A DNA stretch of 64,000 nt from Escherichia phage PHB12: sequence record MK524178.1. One strand, written 5' to 3'. The position numbers and the translations under genes are program-made. This document shows, piece by piece, positions 3,460-58,368 of this stretch (positions within the stretch are counted from its first letter, which is position 1; every line of letters begins with the position of its first letter). The notes under the pieces were generated by a model. The model was not told where the DNA came from and made no database searches. It saw nothing but the letters and a program-made list of their open reading frames with translations.

Positions 3460-4475
3460 TGTGTTGCCTCAATATAAAGTTCGTTGGAATATTTGACCAG
3501 TGCTTCTCTGTCTTCGTCTGAGATATCTGGAATCGCGTCAATATATTCTTTAATGATATCTTGAAGTGATTTAATCTCGATTTCCTGGTCGTCATCAGAT
3601 TCAACACTGTTATCAACTTTAGAAACCATACGAAGAGAGTGAACTACTTTTTCAAGTTCAGATTCAAACTTAGTCAACTCTGAATCAATTTCTGATACTA
3701 TAACACGTAAGGCTAGATTAGTATAATCAGAATAATTGATTTTGCCTTTAAACGGATAAGTGATTCGTCGATGCCATGTTGTTTCATTAGGAATAAATTC
3801 CATACGTTCAACATCAGTGTCAAATACCCAGAATCCGCGCGGGTCGTTCTCATCACCCGCAGTAAGGGTCCATGGTGTCCCAATATATTTGACGTTAGCA
3901 GCTTCAGAGATTGTGTGGAAGTGGCCGGACCAGACTTGTTTATAGGTCTTTAAGAAATCAGGTTCAAGCCCATGAGACTTCATTCCTTTATAGAAATAAA
4001 AGCCGTTCAGTTCCCAGTGCCCAACACAATACGCTGCAGAAGAAGTCTTGATGTGCTCTAAGATTTCACCTGTATTTTCTTCACACATCCATGGAACGAT
4101 ATCAATCAGACATCCGTCAAAATCTACAGTAGTTGGATGTTCGTAAATAGTAAAGTTTTCAAATTGAGTTAACAATTCAGAAACAGTGTTAGGTGTTATT
4201 GTATTCTTAAACGCCATGTCATGGTTTCCTATCGTGACATGAACGTGAATGCCTGCTTTAGAAATCATATCAACGATTTCACGATTGAATTCCATTGTAC
4301 GATGTGTAATTGCTTTACGGACGTCAAACCAATCACCATACTGAATCCAAGTTTTAATCCCGTGTTTCTTAGAGTATTCAATTGCTTGACGAATACCATC
4401 ACGTTGAATATCTTGGACCCATGGGTCGTCTTGTTTGACTCCGATATGGAAGTCGCCTAAGTGCAAAATTTTCAT
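3456..4475 (-). CDS. 47: recombination endonuclease subunit gp47 (Mre11/SbcD-like)
   Basis: 339 aa; calcineurin-like phosphoesterase motifs (GDFH, GDWFD, GNHD, GHWE, GHFH); same length as T4 gp47; 4-nt overlap with upstream ORF. Confidence 0.9.
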   Translation of the reverse strand: MKILHLGDFHIGVKQDDPWVQDIQRDGIRQAIEYSKKHGIKTWIQYGDWFDVRKAITHRTMEFNREIVDMISKAGIHVHVTIGNHDMAFKNTITPNTVSELLTQFENFTIYEHPTTVDFDGCLIDIVPWMCEENTGEILEHIKTSSAAYCVGHWELNGFYFYKGMKSHGLEPDFLKTYKQVWSGHFHTISEAANVKYIGTPWTLTAGDENDPRGFWVFDTDVERMEFIPNETTWHRRITYPFKGKINYSDYTNLALRVIVSEIDSELTKFESELEKVVHSLRMVSKVDNSVESDDDQEIEIKSLQDIIKEYIDAIPDISDEDREALVKYSNELYIEATQ

Positions 4476-4757: not shown

Positions 4758-4979
4758 TCATCGTTTCCACCATTTCTTAACTTGAAATGAATCAACCCAC
4801 ACGAGTTGTTTTGGGTCTGCCTTTACAATAGGCGGACAAATTTCTGTAATAGAACCGTCGTGATATTCCTTTTCGGAAATTTTAACACAAAGAGGACCAC
4901 CCAATTTAACGGTGAACCCTGCGTTCAGCTTCAGACGTTTAAACTTTGTTTGAACTAGCGCCATTAATGATGTCCTCAA
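4758..4979 (-). CDS. hypothetical protein
   Basis: 73 aa ORF in the 47-55 interval (where T4 carries alpha-gt and small ORFs). Confidence 0.35.
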   Translation of the reverse strand: MRTSLMALVQTKFKRLKLNAGFTVKLGGPLCVKISEKEYHDGSITEICPPIVKADPKQLVWVDSFQVKKWWKR

Positions 4980-5262
4980 TAGCCTGACGAGTAGTAACCC
5001 ACTGGATTTTAATTAACTTGTCATTATACGGTTGTCGTAGAATACCCCGAGATTTCTTAATAGCATATTCGTAAGCTTCGAAGTTGTTTTGAATTGCTGC
5101 TTCTTGAGCATGTGCATAAAGACGGTTTAGTTCAAAACGATTCTTTTTAAGAATCTTTTCGGATTTTTTACGTGCTTCAGCTTCATTTTTCTTTTGGATT
5201 TCTTGTAGCATTTTAGCTACTGCATCTTCTGCTTCTTTATTTTCAATAATCTCGGTAGTCAT
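4939..5262 (-). CDS. hypothetical protein (charged, helical)
   Basis: 107 aa ORF; lysine/glutamate-rich. Confidence 0.4.
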   Translation of the reverse strand: MTTEIIENKEAEDAVAKMLQEIQKKNEAEARKKSEKILKKNRFELNRLYAHAQEAAIQNNFEAYEYAIKKSRGILRQPYNDKLIKIQWVTTRQAIEDIINGASSNKV

Positions 5263-5263
5263 A

Positions 5264-5473
5264 TTATCTCATTAAATTAAAATAAAAACGTCCGTCCTCT
5301 TCAATGCAGAACTCGTACTCAACCGGAGTCCCATTTATCGAAAATGACACGTCGTGTGGGTTCAAAGGATCGATGTCAAAATTAATTTTAAATTCTCGAC
5401 CCAACAGTTTTACCAAATAAGGGATTGCTTCGTCAAAAGGTTCTTCTAAGTAGTTAGAGATATCAATTGTCAT
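5264..5473 (-). CDS. hypothetical protein
   Basis: ORF track gives 5264..5557; trimmed to an internal Met ([11 protein letters not shown]...) because the N-terminal part overlaps the gp55 coding end in another frame. Confidence 0.35.
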
Positions 5474-8337: not shown

Positions 8338-8659
8338 AATCTTCTATGATATCAGAGTCGTATCCTAATGAAATCAAGGACTTTTTAAACTCTGCAATAT
8401 TCTTTTGTTTCTTATCATTTAAAAATATGACAGGATAACGAATATTAAGTGAAGTGAATCCTGCACGTTTAGCAAGAGATACAATTAAAGGACGGTCGTA
8501 TTCAATCTTACCATTATTAGTGAGGACTTTATAAAATGTATAAGGAGCATTGAGCTCCTTTAAAAGTTTTGTAACAGTATAACATCCCGGACAACGTCCT
8601 ACTTCTTCAGGGATGCCATAGATTTCAATCTTGTTCTTTAAGTTCGAGTTTTGTTCCAC
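8336..8659 (-). CDS. nrdH: glutaredoxin-like protein (NrdH-like), probable GTG start
   Basis: CPGC redox motif in ...KIEIYGIPEEVGRCPGCYTVTKLL...; sits next to nrdG/nrdD as in T4; N-terminal 44 residues of the track ORF look like out-of-frame sequence of the overlapping 8625..8942 ORF, so start set at GTG 8657-8659 (AAGGA upstream). Confidence 0.55.
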   Translation of the reverse strand: MEQNSNLKNKIEIYGIPEEVGRCPGCYTVTKLLKELNAPYTFYKVLTNNGKIEYDRPLIVSLAKRAGFTSLNIRYPVIFLNDKKQKNIAEFKKSLISLGYDSDIIED

Positions 8660-17315: not shown

Positions 17316-17657
17316 CTAAAAGAAACTTTTTTCGGTATTTTTTCCACTGAACCAAGCGGATTGGGTAGTATTTTTCCGTTGGTGTTCGATACGAATGCGA
17401 TATTCATTCCTGATGGCGCAGAGTTCACCTCGGAAGTCGCCTGCCAACTTTACCTGCTTTCGGTCTAGATTTATTAAGGCCTGAGTCTTCGCGGCCAAGA
17501 GCAGTCTCTTGTAGTCTCCTTCTTCACAATCGGTTTTATAAACTCTATTGGTATATCCGTTGATAACTTCTTTATCATAGTCCTCGACGGATTGTTTCAT
17601 AGCTTTGGAAAAAGTCTGACCTGCGTTATAAAGATTGTAAATAAATTGTTCAAACAT
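17316..17657 (-). CDS. hypothetical protein
   Basis: 113 aa ORF. Confidence 0.4.
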   Translation of the reverse strand: MFEQFIYNLYNAGQTFSKAMKQSVEDYDKEVINGYTNRVYKTDCEEGDYKRLLLAAKTQALINLDRKQVKLAGDFRGELCAIRNEYRIRIEHQRKNTTQSAWFSGKNTEKSFF

Positions 17658-17667
17658 AATTTCACCT

Positions 17668-18669
17668 TTATTTCAGAAGTGTAACTTCAGAGATTTCCTC
17701 CCAACCGTCTTTATCAGTTGAAATAAAATCTGCTACATAAAGAGCCGTACGTAATGATACATTGCGAAGACGAGATACGTTAGCCTTCATCCAGGACAAT
17801 GCTTTATACGTTTCTGCATCTGTCAGACCACGTTTCTGCATCATGTCAGTAGATAATATTACATCTTCAACTCGAACCATAATCTCTTCATTAGAGTGTA
17901 CTCCAAGGTCGAGATACACTGAACGAGATACTAAAGCTTGAAGGTGCGGGGCAAGCTTCGAACCGCGTTCTAACTCTTTATCGATATCAACGTTTGTAAT
18001 GAAAACGATAGTACCTTCAAACACAAATTCTTTATCAATACCCTTATCATCGAGATAAGACGACGCAGTGCTCCAGCAAACTTTGCGTTTATCTCCAGTA
18101 TCTAATGCTGCTTTAAGAAGGTTCAAGATGTCCATATCCGAGAATACGTCAACGTCGTCGATTAAGAGAACGCTGTCTGCATCACGGTTGAGCCAAAGTT
18201 GTTCGTAAAGGCCTATACCAGAGATTTTACCATTAATGCTTTTGTATTTGATGAAACCGTTATCATTAGCATTATTAAGCGCTTTATCCAGAGAATACGT
18301 CTTACCAATACCTGCTGCACCTGAAATAATGAGTGAACGAATTTTGCCATCGATAATGCCATTCGTCATCATGTTCATTACTTTAAAGCGTTTGTTGATA
18401 CGAGTTTTCATATCTTCACTGCTTTCAACAACTGCAACTGGTGATGTCTCAGCTCCTTCCATTACGATGTCTGATTTGAAGACCCATACTCCACGTTCAG
18501 AACCATCAATCATAACGAAAATTTTACCATCACCTAAGTGGGAACATTCAGGATTAAGCTTTGCCGGGAACCATGTCTTTGTGGCAACATAAGAACCAGA
18601 GATTTCGTTATTACGATAGATACCTTTTTTGATTTGAACGTTGAACATTTTATTCTCCAATTTACTCAT
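17668..18669 (-). CDS. P-loop NTPase (Walker A/B) of unknown function
   Basis: 333 aa; Walker A GAAGIGKT and Walker B VLLIDDVD; about 100 aa N-terminal extension. Confidence 0.5.
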   Translation of the reverse strand: MSKLENKMFNVQIKKGIYRNNEISGSYVATKTWFPAKLNPECSHLGDGKIFVMIDGSERGVWVFKSDIVMEGAETSPVAVVESSEDMKTRINKRFKVMNMMTNGIIDGKIRSLIISGAAGIGKTYSLDKALNNANDNGFIKYKSINGKISGIGLYEQLWLNRDADSVLLIDDVDVFSDMDILNLLKAALDTGDKRKVCWSTASSYLDDKGIDKEFVFEGTIVFITNVDIDKELERGSKLAPHLQALVSRSVYLDLGVHSNEEIMVRVEDVILSTDMMQKRGLTDAETYKALSWMKANVSRLRNVSLRTALYVADFISTDKDGWEEISEVTLLK

Positions 18670-18717: not shown

Positions 18718-18936
18718 TTATTTGCGACGAGATTTTTTGGTAAGAGGTTGAAAGAACACTGCTTTACCTGCAGGAGTCAAAGTAACTCGTAATGCATTAC
18801 CGATTCCCAAGGATGCTTTAACAAGACCTTTAGATTTCAGTTCACCGAATGCTTGACGTTGGTCTGCATCACGAGTGTTAACCATAAGACCTTTATCACC
18901 AGCTTCACGAATCATTTCTAACATTTTGGTTTTCAT
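18718..18936 (-). CDS. small hypothetical protein (possible winged-helix fold)
   Basis: Track ORF 18718..18996 trimmed to the ATG preceded by GAGGAG (MKTKMLEMIREAGDKGLMVNTRD...); 72 aa. Confidence 0.4.
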   Translation of the reverse strand: MKTKMLEMIREAGDKGLMVNTRDADQRQAFGELKSKGLVKASLGIGNALRVTLTPAGKAVFFQPLTKKSRRK

Positions 18937-19021: not shown

Positions 19022-19039
19022 AAGGGCCCGAAGGCCCTT
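19022..19039 (-). terminator. hairpin terminator candidate (GGGCC-UUCG-GGCCC on minus transcript)
   Basis: Inverted repeat 19024-19037 directly after the stop of the nucleotidyltransferase gene; short U-run. Confidence 0.45.
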
Positions 19040-19040
19040 A

Positions 19041-20030
19041 TCATTTATAGTACGAATTGTGGTTTTCTAAGTAGACTTGCTCAAGGAAATCATCCCAGAA
19101 ACTCATATCTACTTTTTGTTGCATACCGTTCTTGGCAGCTTGTTCTGATGCTTGTTCAACTTTGTCAACGATATCTTCTAGGAATTCTTGTACAGTTTTA
19201 AACGTATGTTTACCAAGCTTAACATCTAGAATAAATGGAGCATCCCGAAGTGGGTAAACCAGGTCGCCGGTTTTATAAATTTCTAATAGTTGAAGTCCAC
19301 CACGACATGCATGACTCAATGCTTTCCAGTCAATACCTTCGTTAGCTTCTGCCTTACGAGCACGTTCGCCATAGTTCTCTTCCAGTTTAACCAGGATGGC
19401 ATTGAACTCTTTATTGGTTAATGTGTCTTGGAATTTACGGTCTAACAGATTATAGAACGTTTGCTTACCTGTTTTCTCGTTTTCGGTTTCAACCCACGAA
19501 GCAAATTCACCTACGGGCAGAACATTCTTCATATGTGATAAACGAATTACTGCACCATTATCAAAGTATTGTCCCCATTCGTTAGAACGTTTAAGGGCTT
19601 GTCGAAGAACAGCCAGTCGAGAACCCTTGACACCATATTTAGAAGCTTGCTTACGGACATACCCTAAATAAGATTTCATGTTAGTAGTATAGAAACGAGA
19701 CCTGTTGTCTTGAATATACTTCCACACGTCAGGCAAATCAGATTTAACTACTAGACTTTGCGGAGTGTGAAGCATATCTAATGCGACAGTTTCACCATCC
19801 ATAGCTAGTTTAAAGAAATATTTGAGACTATACAACTCGTGGTCCACGTCGTCTTTTGTGTTCTTAGAAGATGTGTTATTCGTGTTCTTGCTCATGTGTT
19901 CTTTAACGTTACCAGTCAAGATATCACGAGCATGAGGGACATAAATTTCTTTAAAATCGACGTCAGATTCAGGAGTAGACGTTCCATAAAGGTGACTACC
20001 AAAGTAGCCTTTCATAATTGTTTTCATCAT
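19041..20030 (-). CDS. predicted Pol-beta-superfamily nucleotidyltransferase
   Basis: 329 aa; N-terminal motif GYFGSHLYGTSTPESDVDF (hG[GS]-x9-SDxD); 4-nt overlap with the upstream membrane-protein gene. Confidence 0.5.
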   Translation of the reverse strand: MMKTIMKGYFGSHLYGTSTPESDVDFKEIYVPHARDILTGNVKEHMSKNTNNTSSKNTKDDVDHELYSLKYFFKLAMDGETVALDMLHTPQSLVVKSDLPDVWKYIQDNRSRFYTTNMKSYLGYVRKQASKYGVKGSRLAVLRQALKRSNEWGQYFDNGAVIRLSHMKNVLPVGEFASWVETENEKTGKQTFYNLLDRKFQDTLTNKEFNAILVKLEENYGERARKAEANEGIDWKALSHACRGGLQLLEIYKTGDLVYPLRDAPFILDVKLGKHTFKTVQEFLEDIVDKVEQASEQAAKNGMQQKVDMSFWDDFLEQVYLENHNSYYK

Positions 20031-20500
20031 TTAGCCTTATATTCAAGAGTAGGACAGACTTTTTCTTTACGAGCTTTAAGGTATTCACCTATTAATGATT
20101 TCTTACGTTCAATAGGCTCAAGTCCATTTTTAATTCGTTCTTGGTTTTTCGCAATGAGCTCGATTTCTTTATAATATTTTCTGTCGTTATATTTGTCTAA
20201 CAACCAAGACGGACCAATTATCAACCCGGCAGCAATAAAAGCCATGACTGCTACTATTAAAATGCCTACGCCAATTGAGGCTGGAACTAATGTCCATAGA
20301 CTGCTAAAAACAAAGAATTTAGTTAAAATTTCCTGGCCAATGATTACGACTGCTGCTAAAATCGCAAATCCGATAATTGAAACAGACAATACCGGGATTA
20401 ACGTTTTCCAAAAATAAGCACACAACGTTTTCGGGCGATTCCATGTACTATTGAACGCGGCATAAATTTTAAAGTGCCAAGAGTTTTCATTGATAATCAT
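20027..20500 (-). CDS. membrane protein (2-3 transmembrane segments) coupled to nucleotidyltransferase
   Basis: 157 aa; hydrophobic segments LIPVLSVSIIGFAILAAVVIIG and VPASIGVGILIVAVMAFIAAGLIIG; charged C-terminal tail. Confidence 0.45.
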   Translation of the reverse strand: MIINENSWHFKIYAAFNSTWNRPKTLCAYFWKTLIPVLSVSIIGFAILAAVVIIGQEILTKFFVFSSLWTLVPASIGVGILIVAVMAFIAAGLIIGPSWLLDKYNDRKYYKEIELIAKNQERIKNGLEPIERKKSLIGEYLKARKEKVCPTLEYKAK

Positions 20501-20509
20501 AATAATTCC

Positions 20510-21040
20510 TTATTTCAAAGTCGGGATAATAGAATCAAGATAAGCTTTAAGAGCAACTGCTTCATCTTTGTCTAATGTAATGATATGTTGACGAAGGTCA
20601 TCAATTTGACGAATAACTACGACATCACCATCTTCATAAGAAGGATTAACGCCTAAGACCGTTGTAGAGTCAGAGTTGGCCGGATTTGTAATAAAAGCAT
20701 TACGGCATTTAGCCCATTGAAGTTTGGCCTTTTTGGCTGTTTCAGATTCCACGAATTCTTTCACCTTAGTGACGAATGTTTTCCAATTATTAATAGAAAA
20801 ACATTCGTCTTCAGTTTCGATATTAACCCCACTATAAAGTCCATGATAAAAACGAACTTGAAGGTCTTCGTCAATGTTAATTACAGATGCATGGCCCGGT
20901 GGATTGAGTTTCAAAATCTTGTCCAGTTCCATAGGAAGAATAGTAACCGCATCATCTTCTTGTGTCAGAACGTAAGCACAACCACGTTTTTCTATACATA
21001 AATCACCAAACAACTCAGTCGTTTCAATTACCGTTTTCAT
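20510..21040 (-). CDS. hypothetical protein
   Basis: Track ORF begins at a TTG; ATG at 21038-21040 (MKTVIETTELFG...) taken as start; about 176 aa. Confidence 0.45.
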   Translation of the reverse strand: MKTVIETTELFGDLCIEKRGCAYVLTQEDDAVTILPMELDKILKLNPPGHASVINIDEDLQVRFYHGLYSGVNIETEDECFSINNWKTFVTKVKEFVESETAKKAKLQWAKCRNAFITNPANSDSTTVLGVNPSYEDGDVVVIRQIDDLRQHIITLDKDEAVALKAYLDSIIPTLK

Positions 21041-21041
21041 A

Positions 21042-21221
21042 TTATTCACCAATTAAAGTTTCAACAAAATTCACTAAATCATTCTGACAAGCATCAACCT
21101 GATTTTCATAAAAATCTCCGTTATCATTTACCGCGTGATAAGCTACATCATTCAAATCTGAATCGGCTTCACGTAAGTCACGGATAAGGTCCATCAATTT
21201 ATTAGCTTGTTCACGGGTCAT
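21042..21221 (-). CDS. small hypothetical protein (59 aa)
   Basis: ATG at 21219-21221 (MTREQANKLMDLIRDLREADSDLND...); stop abuts the start of the downstream gene; below ORF-track cutoff. Confidence 0.3.
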   Translation of the reverse strand: MTREQANKLMDLIRDLREADSDLNDVAYHAVNDNGDFYENQVDACQNDLVNFVETLIGE

Positions 21222-21347
21222 TTTACCATACTCGTTTCAATAAGATTCACTATGCCGTTTACCATGTTATAAGTAAACATCGGATAATTGTATTGTACTA
21301 CAACATAAGCGATAAGCAAAAGTTTCATTTTGTTCTCCATTTGTTTT

Positions 21348-21386
21348 GGTAGGATTACTATATCATAGTCCTACCAAGACGTAAAC
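21348..21386 (-). promoter_or_regulatory. promoter-early stem-loop cassette
   Basis: GGTAGGATTACTATATCATAGTCCTACC inverted repeat with GTTTAC at rc of 21381-21386. Confidence 0.5.
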
Positions 21387-21619
21387 TACCGATTGTGTTT
21401 TAAATGTTGATAAAGCTCTTCAACTTGTTTAGGGTCCAAAACAATTAAGTCATTTTCTTGGCGAAGATAAATCCATCCCTTATCCCCAGGACCATTTTTA
21501 CAAAACATCACCACCGTATCATCATCTTCAGCGCTTTCAGGTAAAAGTTCAAGTACACCGTCTTCAGATTTTCCAGTATAATCGTAAAGCATAATGACCT
21601 CACATAATCTCGTTAACAT
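21386..21619 (-). CDS. hypothetical protein
   Basis: 77 aa acidic ORF. Confidence 0.4.
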   Translation of the reverse strand: MLTRLCEVIMLYDYTGKSEDGVLELLPESAEDDDTVVMFCKNGPGDKGWIYLRQENDLIVLDPKQVEELYQHLKHNR

Positions 21620-21879: not shown

Positions 21880-22437
21880 TTAGTTTTTGTAATATCGTAA
21901 AGGGTTGATATGGAATGAAAGCATTGCGCGTGGAATAGGACGACTCAAAAGACTCTTAAGTTTCCAACCACAATAAACACGCAGATAAAATGTAATACCA
22001 CCAACCTTAAGATAAGGTATAGCAGCGAATAATCCCCATGCAGACTCGTTCCAAACTAAAAGATATCCATGATGTGCCGGATCAGGAGATCCAGATTTAG
22101 TTTCGGCGTTGCCTTTATAGTGCCATTCTGATGAAGCTTCGCGACCTAAAACATGATACGAAAAATTATATGCTTTGTTGCGCCATAGCCAAGCTACGCG
22201 TTGAGCATATTTACCTATAACAGGAATTTTACGTATTTTAGACCAACGTTCAACATGGCCGCGGTCACCATCGATAGGATTATCGTAAGTCATCATCCAG
22301 TCAAAGCCATAAGGTAGTTTACCGGTTTTTTCACTATGGAATGGAACTACAAATGGTGCTAGAATAATTGCTAAAATCGCTGCGATCCAATCTATAGGAA
22401 CAAGAACAACCCAACTTATATATTTTAAAAATTTCAT
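21880..22437 (-). CDS. membrane protein, apparently late-expressed
   Basis: 185 aa; N-terminal hydrophobic region (YISWVVLVPIDWIAAILAIILAPFVVPF); late-promoter match directly upstream. Confidence 0.45.
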   Translation of the reverse strand: MKFLKYISWVVLVPIDWIAAILAIILAPFVVPFHSEKTGKLPYGFDWMMTYDNPIDGDRGHVERWSKIRKIPVIGKYAQRVAWLWRNKAYNFSYHVLGREASSEWHYKGNAETKSGSPDPAHHGYLLVWNESAWGLFAAIPYLKVGGITFYLRVYCGWKLKSLLSRPIPRAMLSFHINPLRYYKN

Positions 22438-22461: not shown

Positions 22462-22469
22462 TATTTATA
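22462..22469 (-). promoter_or_regulatory. T4-type late promoter TATAAATA (minus strand)
   Basis: Plus-strand TATTTATA at 22462-22469, exact reverse complement of the late consensus, about 25 nt upstream of the 21880..22437 start. Confidence 0.55.
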
Positions 22470-38349: not shown

Positions 38350-38426
<77 letters not shown>

Positions 38427-38432
38427 CGAATA

Positions 38433-38506
38433 TATGACCCAGACCAGATTCGAACTGGTAACCTTTCCCTTATGAGGGGACTGCTGCTAACCGTTGAGCT
38501 ACAGGG
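38433..38506 (-). tRNA. tRNA with CAT anticodon (Met or lysidine-type Ile)
   Basis: Hand-folded: acceptor GGCCCTG/CTGGGTC (one mismatch), anticodon loop CTCATAA, T-arm ACCAG-TTCGAAT-CTGGT; D-stem has one C-C mismatch. Confidence 0.6.
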
Positions 38507-38587
38507 CCTAAATAACTTTCTATTATGAAAGGCACTTTAGAGCACCTTTGGTAATAGAGGGTATGAATTAATAATAACACATAATTC

Positions 38588-56162: not shown

Positions 56163-56821
56163 TGACAATACTTAATACTAAAGCGGGAGTAATATCCCGC
56201 GAAGCAGATTTTTTAGGATTTAGAAAAAATCCTACTCAAATTGATATTTTAAACAACCAAGGCGTAGGTTCTGTAACCATTTCTCAATTGGCAAAAGGAT
56301 TCTACGATGATAACGTAGAATCTGCAATAAACGATGTTCATAATATTGCTAGAGCAGATGTAGGAACAGTTACAATTAACACCTCAGGTGTATCTCCTGA
56401 AGGAACTTCACAGGTAGATTATTGGTCCTTTAGTGGAAGTGTAACTGACCCTAGTTTGCCCGATGGAAGCCCTGTTATTGTAAAAGTTTACGGGCTTCCT
56501 GTTAATGCTACTGTAGGTATGACAGCCGACGAATTTGTTGTACAATTACGTACTACTCTCCAGAATGCGATTTCCGACCAATTGGCTATTGCAGAGTATA
56601 AAGATGACCCTACTGTTGGGACTAAATTACAAATAACATATTTAGATAACCAAAGACACGTACTCCCAACGTATTCCGCTTATGGTATCACGGTTTCTCA
56701 AGAAATAGTGTCTCAGGCTAAGTCCGGGTACGGCACTTGGAATTTACTAGGTGCGCAAACCCTTACTCTTGACAACCATAATTCACCTACAACCTTTTAT
56801 TATTTTGTGAGAACCGCATGA
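56162..56821 (+). CDS. 11: baseplate wedge and tail pin protein gp11
   Basis: Start at ATG 56162 overlapping gp10 stop (TAATG); [20 protein letters not shown]... matches T4 gp11; 219 aa. Confidence 0.85.
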
Positions 56822-58368
56822 GTAACAATACATATCAACACGTTTCAAACGAATCTGTATATGTTGAATTTGACCCTACCGGGTCAAATTTTGATAGTTC
56901 AATAACCAATGTCCAGGCAGCCTTAGCCTCAATTAGCGCATACGGTGTTAAAGGTGTTCCGGACGCAAGCGAAGCAGAAAAAGGTGTAATTCAATTAGCG
57001 TCAGAACAAGAAGTTCTTGATGGATTTAATAGTACTAAAGCCGTTACACCAGCCACATTAAATGCAAGACTTCAGTATCCGAACGCGTCAGAAACACAGT
57101 ACGGCGTAACTAAATATGCAACACAAGAGGAGGCCATTGCTGGCACTTTAGACACTGTTTCTATTACTCCGCTTAAATTAAACCAAACTATTGATAACAC
57201 TTTCTCTACTCGTTATTCAACAGAAACAACTAACGGTGTTATTAAAATTGCAACTCAAACCGCTGCACTTGCTGGGTCTGATGACACCACAGCAATGACT
57301 CCGCTTAAAACGCAACAATTAACAATAAAATTAATTTCTCAAATAGCTCCTAATAACGACCCGGCTTCAGAATCTATTACCGGTGTTGTGCGTTTAGCTA
57401 CGGTGGCTCAAACACGTCAAGGAACTCTTCGCGAAGGATATGCAATTTCCCCGTATACCTTTATGAATTCTGTTGCAACACAAGAATATAAAGGTGTTAT
57501 ACGTCTAGGAACACAAGCGGAAATTAATAGCAATTTGGGAGATGTTGCTGTAACAGGTGAAACGCTAAATGGTAGAGGAGCTACCGGTTCTATGCGTGGA
57601 GTCGTAAAATTAACGACGCAGGCTGGTATTGCCCCTGAAGGCGATAGCTCTGGAGCATTAGCATGGAACGCAGATGTAATTAATACACGCGGTGGGCAAA
57701 CTATTAATGGTTCTTTAAATTTAGATCACCTCACAGCAAATGGAATTTGGTCGCGTGGCGGAATGTGGAAAAACGGTGACCAGCCAGTTGCAACAGAGAG
57801 ATATGCATCTGAACGTGTTCCTGTTGGAACAATTCAAATGTTCGCAGGTGATAGCGCTCCTCCAGGTTGGGTTTTATGTCATGGTGGGACCATTTCTGGA
57901 GACCAATTTCCGGACTATCGAAATGTGGTTGGAACAAGATTTGGCGGTGATTGGAATAATCCTGGAATTCCGGATATGCGCGGTCTTTTTGTTAGAGGAG
58001 CTGGTACTGGCAGTCATATTTTAAATAATCGGGGCCAAGACGGCTATGGAAAGGATAGATTAGGTGTAGGATGTGACGGCATGCATGTTGGTGGTGTCCA
58101 AGCACAACAAATGTCATATCATAAACATGCCGGTGGATGGGGCGAATATCAACGTCATGAGGCACCGTTCGGAGCATCCGTATATCAAGGTTATTTGGGT
58201 ACTAGAAAATACTCTGATTGGGATAACGCATCATATTTCACAAATGACGGCTTCGAATTAGGTGGTCACCGCGACGCAACAGGCACTCTTAACCGTGAAG
58301 GACTTATCGGATATGAGACTCGTCCATGGAATATATCTTTAAATTATATTATTAAAGTCCATTACTAA
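56818..58368 (+). CDS. 12: short tail fibre protein gp12
   Basis: 516 aa; repetitive N-terminal region ([16 protein letters not shown] repeats) typical of gp12; position after gene 11. Confidence 0.85.

Follow-up and report, generated by a model that had tools for sequence, protein, structure and literature searches.

The window analyzed here, a stretch of 64,000 nucleotides (nt) of Escherichia phage PHB12 (MK524178.1), carries two adjacent genes on its minus strand, one for a 329-amino-acid (aa) nucleotidyltransferase and one for a 157-aa membrane protein, and we compare them with two described systems, the RlaP nucleotidyltransferases and the bacterial defense system Hailong. RlaP was named by Burroughs and Aravind for its association with RNA ligases, yet this naming feature is true of "some" members only. 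A December 2025 preprint by Carruthers, Fatma, and Huang (PMC12776372) places T4 NrdC.11 in RlaP cluster 5 and reports that two Pseudomonas RlaP enzymes, which use Mn2+ and prefer a nicked-tRNA mimic, add one or two nucleoside monophosphates (NMPs), or the deoxy forms (dNMPs), onto the 3'-OH of RNA. In the assays described there, neither DNA nor protein served the tested enzymes as a substrate, and E. coli protein and DNA stayed unlabeled. The same preprint reports that Pseudomonas RlaP partly restores aminoacylation of a tRNA without one anticodon-loop nucleotide, proposes RlaP as an antidote to nucleotide-excising nucleases such as RloC, and presents a crystal structure of PfRlaP in which an N-terminal nucleotidyltransferase is joined to a C-terminal helical domain whose last helix packs on the N-domain. 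Among jumbo phages, the distribution of RlaP is reported to mirror that of RNA ligases. Hailong, as outlined in reviews, is a bacterial two-gene anti-phage defense that combines a transmembrane DNA-gated ion channel, HalA, with a nucleotidyltransferase, HalB.

A 2.5-kb region comprising the two genes and their surroundings shares 98% of its DNA sequence with Escherichia phage SF and 96% with RB69 (Mosigvirus); the window is that of an RB69-like Mosigvirus. The RefSeq annotation of RB69 names the two genes nrdC.11 ("nucleotidyltransferase") and RB69ORF104c ("membrane protein"), with mobD.1/tk.1 upstream and RB69ORF102c/nrdC.10 downstream, in agreement with a preliminary description of the window that had put them in the nrdC-tk accessory region. 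That description took the pair for a strong candidate for an uncharacterized accessory system, perhaps a two-gene signaling, abortive-infection, or counter-defense module. We think it rather probable that these are instead two independent accessory genes, neighbors where one transcription unit ends, of which one encodes an RlaP-type RNA-end enzyme and the other a separate membrane protein. The two predicted genes are as follows.

19041-20030, minus strand: NrdC.11 ortholog, an RlaP-family (PF10127) Pol-beta-type nucleotidyltransferase of 329 aa (open reading frame [ORF] list, homology, Pfam)
20027-20500, minus strand: inner-membrane protein of 157 aa, RB69ORF104c ortholog, phrog_944 (ORF list; phrog_944 match at 1.1e-52)

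Family and fold of the nucleotidyltransferase

The 329-aa protein, which begins MMKTIMKGYFGSHLYGTSTPESDVDF, is 96 to 99% identical to NrdC.11 of RB69 and SF; its identity with NrdC.11 of RB68, which is of the T4 type, is 77%. Its score with the Pfam family RlaP (PF10127) is 47.7 bits (E value of 2.1e-12), well over the cut-off of 23, for residues 7 to 140, and the match spans positions 23 to 147 of the 249-position profile, that is, its N-terminal half only. A further match is to phrog_388, "nucleotidyltransferase" (7.8e-126). The RlaP match recurs in all nine diverse homologs tried (27 to 79% identity), and a precomputed PF10127 assignment accompanies 120 of 120 close homologs among the matches listed. 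An exhaustive search of 1.84 billion representative sequences gave 3,255 relatives, 744 of them at an E value of 1e-30 or below and most of them 300 to 350 aa long. By sequence, the protein is the Mosigvirus ortholog of T4 NrdC.11 and a divergent member of RlaP. NrdC.11 was already recognized before the present work, through the RefSeq annotation, through the match of nrdC.11 orthologs to the nucleotidyltransferase COG, COG3541, reported by Nolan et al. in 2006, and through the RlaP placement.

The active site is strongly conserved. Across an alignment of 146 sequences (the window protein and 145 representatives), G11 is kept in all 146, S12, D23, D25, and N57 in 145 each, D61 in 141, D63 in 142 with Glu in the other 4, and D85 in 142. 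The Pol-beta signature of RlaP, hG[GS] followed by [DE]h[DE]h plus a third carboxylate, is thus conserved in the alignment, with D61, D63, and D85 as candidates for the third carboxylate, and the GS and DxD residues picked out in the preliminary description are retained in 145 to 146 of the 146 sequences. Its assignment of the protein to the Pol-beta superfamily is borne out by this conservation, by the RlaP score, and by the nature of the best fold matches, which are nucleotidyltransferases.

An AlphaFold2 (AF2) model built from a 115-sequence alignment is confident, with a predicted local distance difference test (pLDDT) score of 94.2 and a predicted template modeling (pTM) score of 0.83. 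It consists of an N-terminal alpha/beta core with core-sheet strands at residues 3 to 10, 24 to 31, 45 to 49, and 62 to 68, a long helix (119 to 155), a beta insert (177 to 201), and a helical C-domain with helices at 206 to 228, 235 to 254, 264 to 271, 277 to 300, and 309 to 328. The modeled layout, an N-terminal nucleotidyltransferase followed by a C-terminal helical domain, agrees in general outline with what is described for PfRlaP, a comparison made by description only. The two predicted domains are the following.

19686-20030, minus strand: N-terminal nucleotidyltransferase core, residues 1 to 115, with G11-S12, D23-x-D25, N57, D61-x-D63, and D85 (alignment, AF2)
19044-19415, minus strand: C-terminal helical domain, residues 206 to 329, with near-invariant R223, W235, K236, H240, R243, and P260 (conservation, AF2; outside the Pfam match)

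Comparison of the model with the PDB by Foldseek gave weak nucleotidyltransferase matches only (kanamycin nucleotidyltransferase, Exiguobacterium 3c18, and HalB), all at E values of at least 2.7e-3; ANT(3'')(9), LinB, the MNT antitoxin, and GlnE are further fold matches. HalB is the nearest solved fold among the PDB chains compared, a set without PfRlaP, and its margin over the other nucleotidyltransferases is small. Sequence searches of the PDB with the single protein and with two profiles gave no relevant chain. Kanamycin nucleotidyltransferase ANT(4') and Exiguobacterium 3c18 differ from the enzyme, at 9 to 11% identity, a TM-score of about 0.3, and no family match; the substrate of ANT(4') is a small molecule, and 3c18 is a nucleotidyltransferase-like protein without assigned function.

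In Pfam, NCBIfam, and PADLOC, nothing but RlaP reached its curated threshold, and PADLOC gave no match. The families to which the preliminary description had looked, CD-NTase, AbiEii, MNT, and CCA-adding enzymes, therefore fell away when their profiles were run, none matching above threshold. CD-NTase/CBASS was rejected on the lack of a SMODS match in Pfam and of a PADLOC match; AbiEii, the type IV toxin-antitoxin toxin, on the lack of a Pfam or PADLOC match, its neighbors here being the membrane protein and a 72-aa ORF. For MNT (MntA/HEPN), NTP_transf_2 scored 13.3 bits (cut-off, 21) and MntA 12.9 bits (cut-off, 60), there is no HEPN neighbor, and the protein has 329 aa against about 100 to 150 aa expected. 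CCA-adding enzymes and class II poly(A) polymerases were rejected with no match to a poly(A)-polymerase profile.

The gene appears in databases under several names. Many GenBank records call the window-type NrdC.11 ortholog "thioredoxin", which looks like an annotation error spread from the neighboring nrdC name; in other records it is a nucleotidyltransferase or an "RNA repair pathway DNA polymerase beta". In T4, one record keeps residues 291 to 329 of NrdC.11 only, and a viable genome-reduced T4 is reported to have lost the nrdC.11-mobD.3 block. The gene is dispensable in the laboratory.

A widespread family of phage membrane proteins

The 157-aa protein is a full-length member of phrog_944 (E value of 1.1e-52), with no family in Pfam, NCBIfam, or PADLOC. 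Its family was found by tblastn in 1,208 phage records, from T-even relatives and Klebsiella, Acinetobacter, and Aeromonas myoviruses to Vibrio phage ICP1 and the jumbo phage phiR1-37, and a profile search of 5.8 billion proteins gave 135 clusters, all single-domain and about 76 to 181 aa long (most 117 to 181 aa). The membrane ORF is therefore real and conserved, as the preliminary description had assumed. In a 48-sequence alignment, W8, H9, C27, and Y29 near the N-terminus and K147 and C149 near the C-terminus are invariant and P150 is near-invariant, around a variable hydrophobic core; the corresponding motifs are SWH...LCxYFW at the N-terminus and KA[KR]KxK[VI]CPxxE[FY] at the C-terminus. 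ICP1 gp169 (positions 4923 to 5345 of our locus L005) and Yersinia phage phiR1-37 g265 (5001 to 5501 of L006) are members from much-studied model phages outside Straboviridae and keep the invariant W, H, C, Y and K, C residues. With RB69ORF104c, these two proteins, and ORFs of Aeromonas phages 65 and 31, the phrog_944 family is one with which the 157-aa protein agrees throughout.

The preliminary description counted two to three transmembrane helices. Two are supported, by two hydropathy blocks and two AF2 helices, but no third.

20333-20404, minus strand: predicted transmembrane helix 1, residues about 33 to 56 (Kyte-Doolittle hydropathy; AF2 helix 26 to 62)
20201-20299, minus strand: predicted transmembrane helix 2, residues about 68 to 100, running on as a charged cytoplasmic helix (hydropathy; AF2 helix 68 to 124)

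In the AF2 model (pLDDT 83.5), short strands at residues 2 to 4 and 153 to 155 enclose the two long helices. Both termini are rich in Lys and Arg, the C-terminal tail holding 16 K+R against 10 D+E, and the protein is probably a two-transmembrane hairpin with both termini on the same, cytoplasmic, face. The predicted secondary structure would also allow the N- and C-termini to pack together as a small mini-domain containing His and Cys. A search of the PDB with the family profile gave chance transmembrane matches only, and a fold search of BFVD gave uncharacterized family members only, so that in these two databases the family, which has no Pfam model, has no solved or characterized relative.

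Do the two genes travel together?

We surveyed the pair in 43 loci and in two whole genomes, those of T4 and ICP1. The genes abut in Mosigvirus, in Tequatrovirus except T4, in a third clade (membrane protein 35% and enzyme 68% identical), and at locus L026, and abutting pairs are confined to T-even relatives that infect enterobacteria. Jiaodavirus (1.2 kb) and an Acinetobacter phage have one to three small genes between the two. Either gene also occurs without the other. In 13 of the first 28 loci sampled, no enzyme gene lies within 10 kb of the membrane gene, and RB43, phiM7, GomatiRiver_11, and RcXuper lack a membrane gene within 4 kb of the enzyme gene. At the level of whole genomes, a six-frame profile scan of T4 found no membrane-family gene (best E value of 0.15), though the enzyme is present, and ICP1 has no NrdC.11-type enzyme (best E value of 0.84), its membrane gene gp169 being found at 7.6e-24. 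The preliminary description was thus right that such a pair is not a characterized T4 function, since T4 has no membrane gene.

The place of that gene in T4, immediately ahead of nrdC.11, is taken by mobD, which encodes a homing endonuclease. The T4 mobD gene (HNH; NC_000866 positions 56429 to 57208, equal to 430 to 1209 of locus L035) stands against a two-gene slot in RB68 (3477 to 4462 of locus L002), which is occupied by RB68_102, the second of its y05I-like genes, and by the membrane gene. Comparison of T4 and RB68 by blastn shows that the flanks of the slot match at 99% and 92% and that the interior has been replaced, from which it follows that insertion of mobD in T4 went with loss of two genes. 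In phages without an adjacent enzyme, no alternative partner of the membrane gene was found: the ORFs that flank lone membrane genes have no Pfam domains and are mutually unrelated outside close relatives.

Because of the reciprocal absences in T4 and ICP1, the separated layouts, and the loci with a lone membrane gene, we regard adjacency as inherited synteny in one branch of Straboviridae and not as a conserved two-gene module. The proposed signaling, abortive-infection, or counter-defense module is not supported, with no CD-NTase, AbiEii, MNT, or CCA match above threshold, no PADLOC match, and each gene occurring without the other; nor is the label of uncharacterized accessory system supported, since the RlaP family has a published activity and a proposed role and the two genes are separable.

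Organization of the locus

The features at either end of the enzyme gene are the following.

20025-20038, minus strand: junction of the two genes, with an AAGG Shine-Dalgarno at 20038-20035, the membrane-gene TGA at 20029-20027, and enzyme starts at 20030-20028 and 20027-20025 (sequence, cross-lineage comparison)
19022-19039, minus strand: C(UUCG)G tetraloop hairpin, AAGGGCC-UUCG-GGCCCUU, directly 3' of the enzyme stop codon (sequence, comparison with T4 and RB68)

The junction reads AAATGATGAAA, the membrane frame ending in GCT AAA TGA and the enzyme frame opening with ATG ATG AAA. The TGA overlaps the first ATG by 4 nt and the second by 1 nt (TGATG). The second ATG is more likely to be the conserved start, giving an enzyme of 328 aa, because a close relative (L008) reads ATA where the first ATG stands, because most database entries among the matches listed have 328 aa, because homolog alignments begin at the second Met, and because the Shine-Dalgarno sits 7 nt from the second ATG and only 4 nt from the first. 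The 4-nt overlap emphasized earlier thus holds for the first ATG, but the likelier start overlaps by 1 nt. A separate AAGGA precedes the ATG of the membrane ORF by six nt and overlaps the stop codon of the gene before it. Overlapping gene junctions are routine, being found at 12 of the 30 same-strand junctions of the RB69 region, five of them by exactly 4 nt, and for this reason the stop/start overlap of the pair is ordinary T-even gene packing that carries little information.

At the other end, the hairpin was described as a terminator that ends the pair. It is real, conserved in position, and placed at the end of the unit, but it is a weak terminator here because its U tract is degraded: UAGGGGG follows the stem, with no U run. 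T4 and RB68 have at the same place a textbook intrinsic terminator, GGGAGCC-UUCG-GGCUCCC followed by UUUUUU (T4 copy at about 8405 to 8430 of locus L034). Termination at the hairpin in PHB12 is probably leaky, and retention of the hairpin with a different stem and with the U tract lost suggests that the hairpin itself and not termination is under selection, stability of the mRNA 3' end being one possible reason. A TG-extended promoter-like site at 18992-18965, ahead of the 72-aa ORF, would serve the next unit, and the pair closes one transcription unit. Upstream, within 19 to 22.7 kb, no convincing T4 early, middle (MotA-box), or late promoter motif was found, the exceptions being a loose MotA-like site at 21318 and a late-type TATAAATA at 22469; a sigma-70 consensus scan was at chance level, with 16 sites found and 15.9 expected.

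Function of the enzyme and competing interpretations

NrdC.11 resembles RlaP in its above-cut-off Pfam match, its GS/DxD/third-Asp site, its N-terminal nucleotidyltransferase and, as far as the description of PfRlaP allows a comparison, its predicted C-terminal helical domain, and the presence in the same phage genome of polynucleotide kinase-phosphatase (Pnkp) and RNA ligase genes: RB69 encodes pseT and rnlA about 80 kb from nrdC.11, and T4 encodes pseT, rnlA, and rnlB, likewise far away. It differs in matching the profile in its N-terminal half only, at about 329 aa against 249 profile positions, in an extra conserved N57/D61/D63 loop and the beta insert, and in its place outside any operon with an RNA ligase, and the known activity is that of bacterial members. 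The RNA ligase association expected of RlaP is missing from the nrdC-tk region, which contains no ligase gene. Elsewhere, the association appears in a loose form only, in phiM7, whose homolog has an RNA ligase 3.3 kb upstream; the RcXuper homolog adjoins a tRNA cluster.

Membership in the RlaP profile, conservation of the active site, a confident fold, Pnkp and ligase genes in the same genomes, and independence of the two genes are matters of observation, and the mechanism that we propose from them is conditional. By analogy with the RlaP family, D23 and D25 with a third carboxylate (D61/D63 or D85) would hold two metal ions, and NrdC.11, like bacterial RlaP, would extend the 3'-OH of a broken RNA by one or two NMPs. 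As its substrate we propose the 5' half of a tRNA that has lost a nucleotide to a host anticodon nuclease; phage Pnkp would clear the 3' phosphate before NrdC.11 acts, and the phage RNA ligase Rnl1, whose gene lies about 80 kb away, would afterwards reseal a full-length anticodon loop. NrdC.11 may then be a non-essential counter-defense helper to T4 Pnkp/Rnl1 tRNA repair, directed against nucleotide-excising anticodon nucleases. The membrane protein would act alone at the inner membrane, in host takeover or exclusion, as neither effector nor partner of the enzyme.

Filling in of tRNA halves by NrdC.11, if it takes place, would make the classical Pnkp/Rnl1 repair pathway of T4 complete and explain how T-even phages cope with RloC-type nucleases, where plain religation yields a defective tRNA. 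The fill-in idea is already published for the RlaP family, and the window contributes an ortholog and not the concept. The candidate system resolves into two separable genes, which spares a toxicity or signaling screen on the pair, with T4 and ICP1 as natural single-gene controls. What remains of value is a phage RlaP subfamily and a large uncharacterized membrane-protein family, which, with more than 1,200 phage records, a predicted conserved His/Cys mini-domain, and no Pfam model, may merit its own study.

Several points weigh against our interpretation. The repair role of RlaP is graded "potential" in the preprint itself, and the reported biochemistry covers PfRlaP and PaRlaP, bacterial enzymes from Pseudomonas RtcB operons, only. 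The T-even nrdC.11 gene does not lie beside an RNA ligase gene, the association that gave RlaP its name, and the C-domain and the beta insert at 177 to 201, both outside the RlaP match, may direct the enzyme to another substrate. HalB, the nearest fold among solved structures, naturally works with a membrane protein, and the pair stays adjacent or near-adjacent across lineages in which the membrane protein falls to 35% identity. Such retained adjacency is compatible with a functional link inside Tevenvirinae, though it is not evidence for one.

An alternative that we consider unlikely, if worth keeping in view, is that the enzyme, apart from the membrane protein, nucleotidylates some other acceptor: a protein (AMPylation, as by MNT/HEPN), a small molecule of the aminoglycoside type, or a component of host defense. 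The fold matches to kanamycin nucleotidyltransferase, ANT(3'')(9), LinB, the MNT antitoxin, and GlnE would suit such an activity, as would a C-terminal half outside the RlaP profile, a lineage-specific beta insert, and the lack of RNA ligase linkage in T-even genomes. However, RlaP is the sole family at its curated sequence threshold, the tested RlaP enzymes are reported to have left E. coli protein and DNA unlabeled, and the near-invariant basic residues R223, K236, H240, and R243 would suit a nucleic-acid substrate.

Far less probable is a two-component module of the Hailong type, in which a toxic membrane channel or effector would be gated by an (oligo)nucleotide signal from the enzyme and could serve in exclusion of competitors, in timing of lysis, or in mimicking or jamming a host defense. 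Both systems comprise a transmembrane protein and a Pol-beta nucleotidyltransferase as two genes, and the order of membrane gene then enzyme, with tight coupling, a common 3' hairpin, and adjacency or near-adjacency in several genera of Tevenvirinae, fits the comparison. Yet the enzyme is only 16% identical to HalB, with no similarity at the level of hidden Markov models; at E values of 10 or below, the enzyme shows no sequence similarity to HalB and the membrane protein none to any chain in the PDB; and there is no PADLOC match. Sequence puts the enzyme in RlaP, whose characterized members are reported to add only one or two nucleotides to RNA, and the 157-aa membrane protein is a minimal two-transmembrane hairpin with a tiny cytoplasmic part, set apart by description only from HalA, which is described with a cytoplasmic crown. 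The locus here is a phage locus, whereas Hailong is a bacterial defense locus, and the genes here also occur singly: T4 with the enzyme only, ICP1 with the membrane gene only, and 13 of 28 loci with the membrane gene and no enzyme inside 10 kb argue against an obligatorily co-encoded partner of the HalA type. A phage-borne Hailong counterpart in enterobacterial T-even relatives, of which T4 and ICP1 would be decayed or rewired remnants, seems to us highly improbable; if true, it would be the first nucleotidyltransferase-gated membrane module in a lytic phage. Likelier than such a counterpart, and more modest, is the possibility that the membrane family by itself represents a new class of membrane effectors in phages.

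We give almost no credence to membrane-anchored RNA repair, in which the membrane protein would serve NrdC.11 as an anchor in the inner membrane, for example, close to membrane-associated nucleases or to ribosomes making membrane proteins, an idea that draws on the adjacent, translationally coupled genes of Mosigvirus, Tequatrovirus, and the third clade and on a conserved mini-domain as a possible docking site if both termini are cytoplasmic as predicted, but that runs against the reciprocal absences in T4 and ICP1, the separated arrangements, and the lack of visible joint constraint, the membrane protein being 35 to 50% and the enzyme 68 to 78% identical between lineages.

Neighboring genes

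Directly upstream of the pair, the mobD.1 ortholog (20510-21052, minus strand) matches Pfam T4_y05I_N at 3.5e-40 and T4_y05I_C at 2.5e-18 and is a putative transcription factor; RB68 has two tandem y05I-like paralogs. Downstream, between the hairpin and nrdC.10, lies the 72-aa ORF (18718-18936, minus strand), an RB69ORF102c ortholog in phrog_6001 without a Pfam family. The NrdC.10 ortholog itself (17668-18669, minus strand; 333 aa) belongs to phrog_1250, which assigns it no function, and shows weak P-loop/AAA and STAND-like matches at about residues 100 to 210 and a weak HTH_37 match at 251 to 307, all under the Pfam cut-offs. The neighboring small ORFs at 21880-22437, 21386-21619, 21042-21221, and 17316-17657, all on the minus strand, are DUF7338, DUF7189, DUF7438, and DUF7203, families created recently in Pfam; the membrane family, equally conserved, is without any Pfam model. 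Farther off, the window has two tRNA genes only, Arg(tct) and Met(cat), at 38352-38508 on the minus strand; the T4 cluster has eight.

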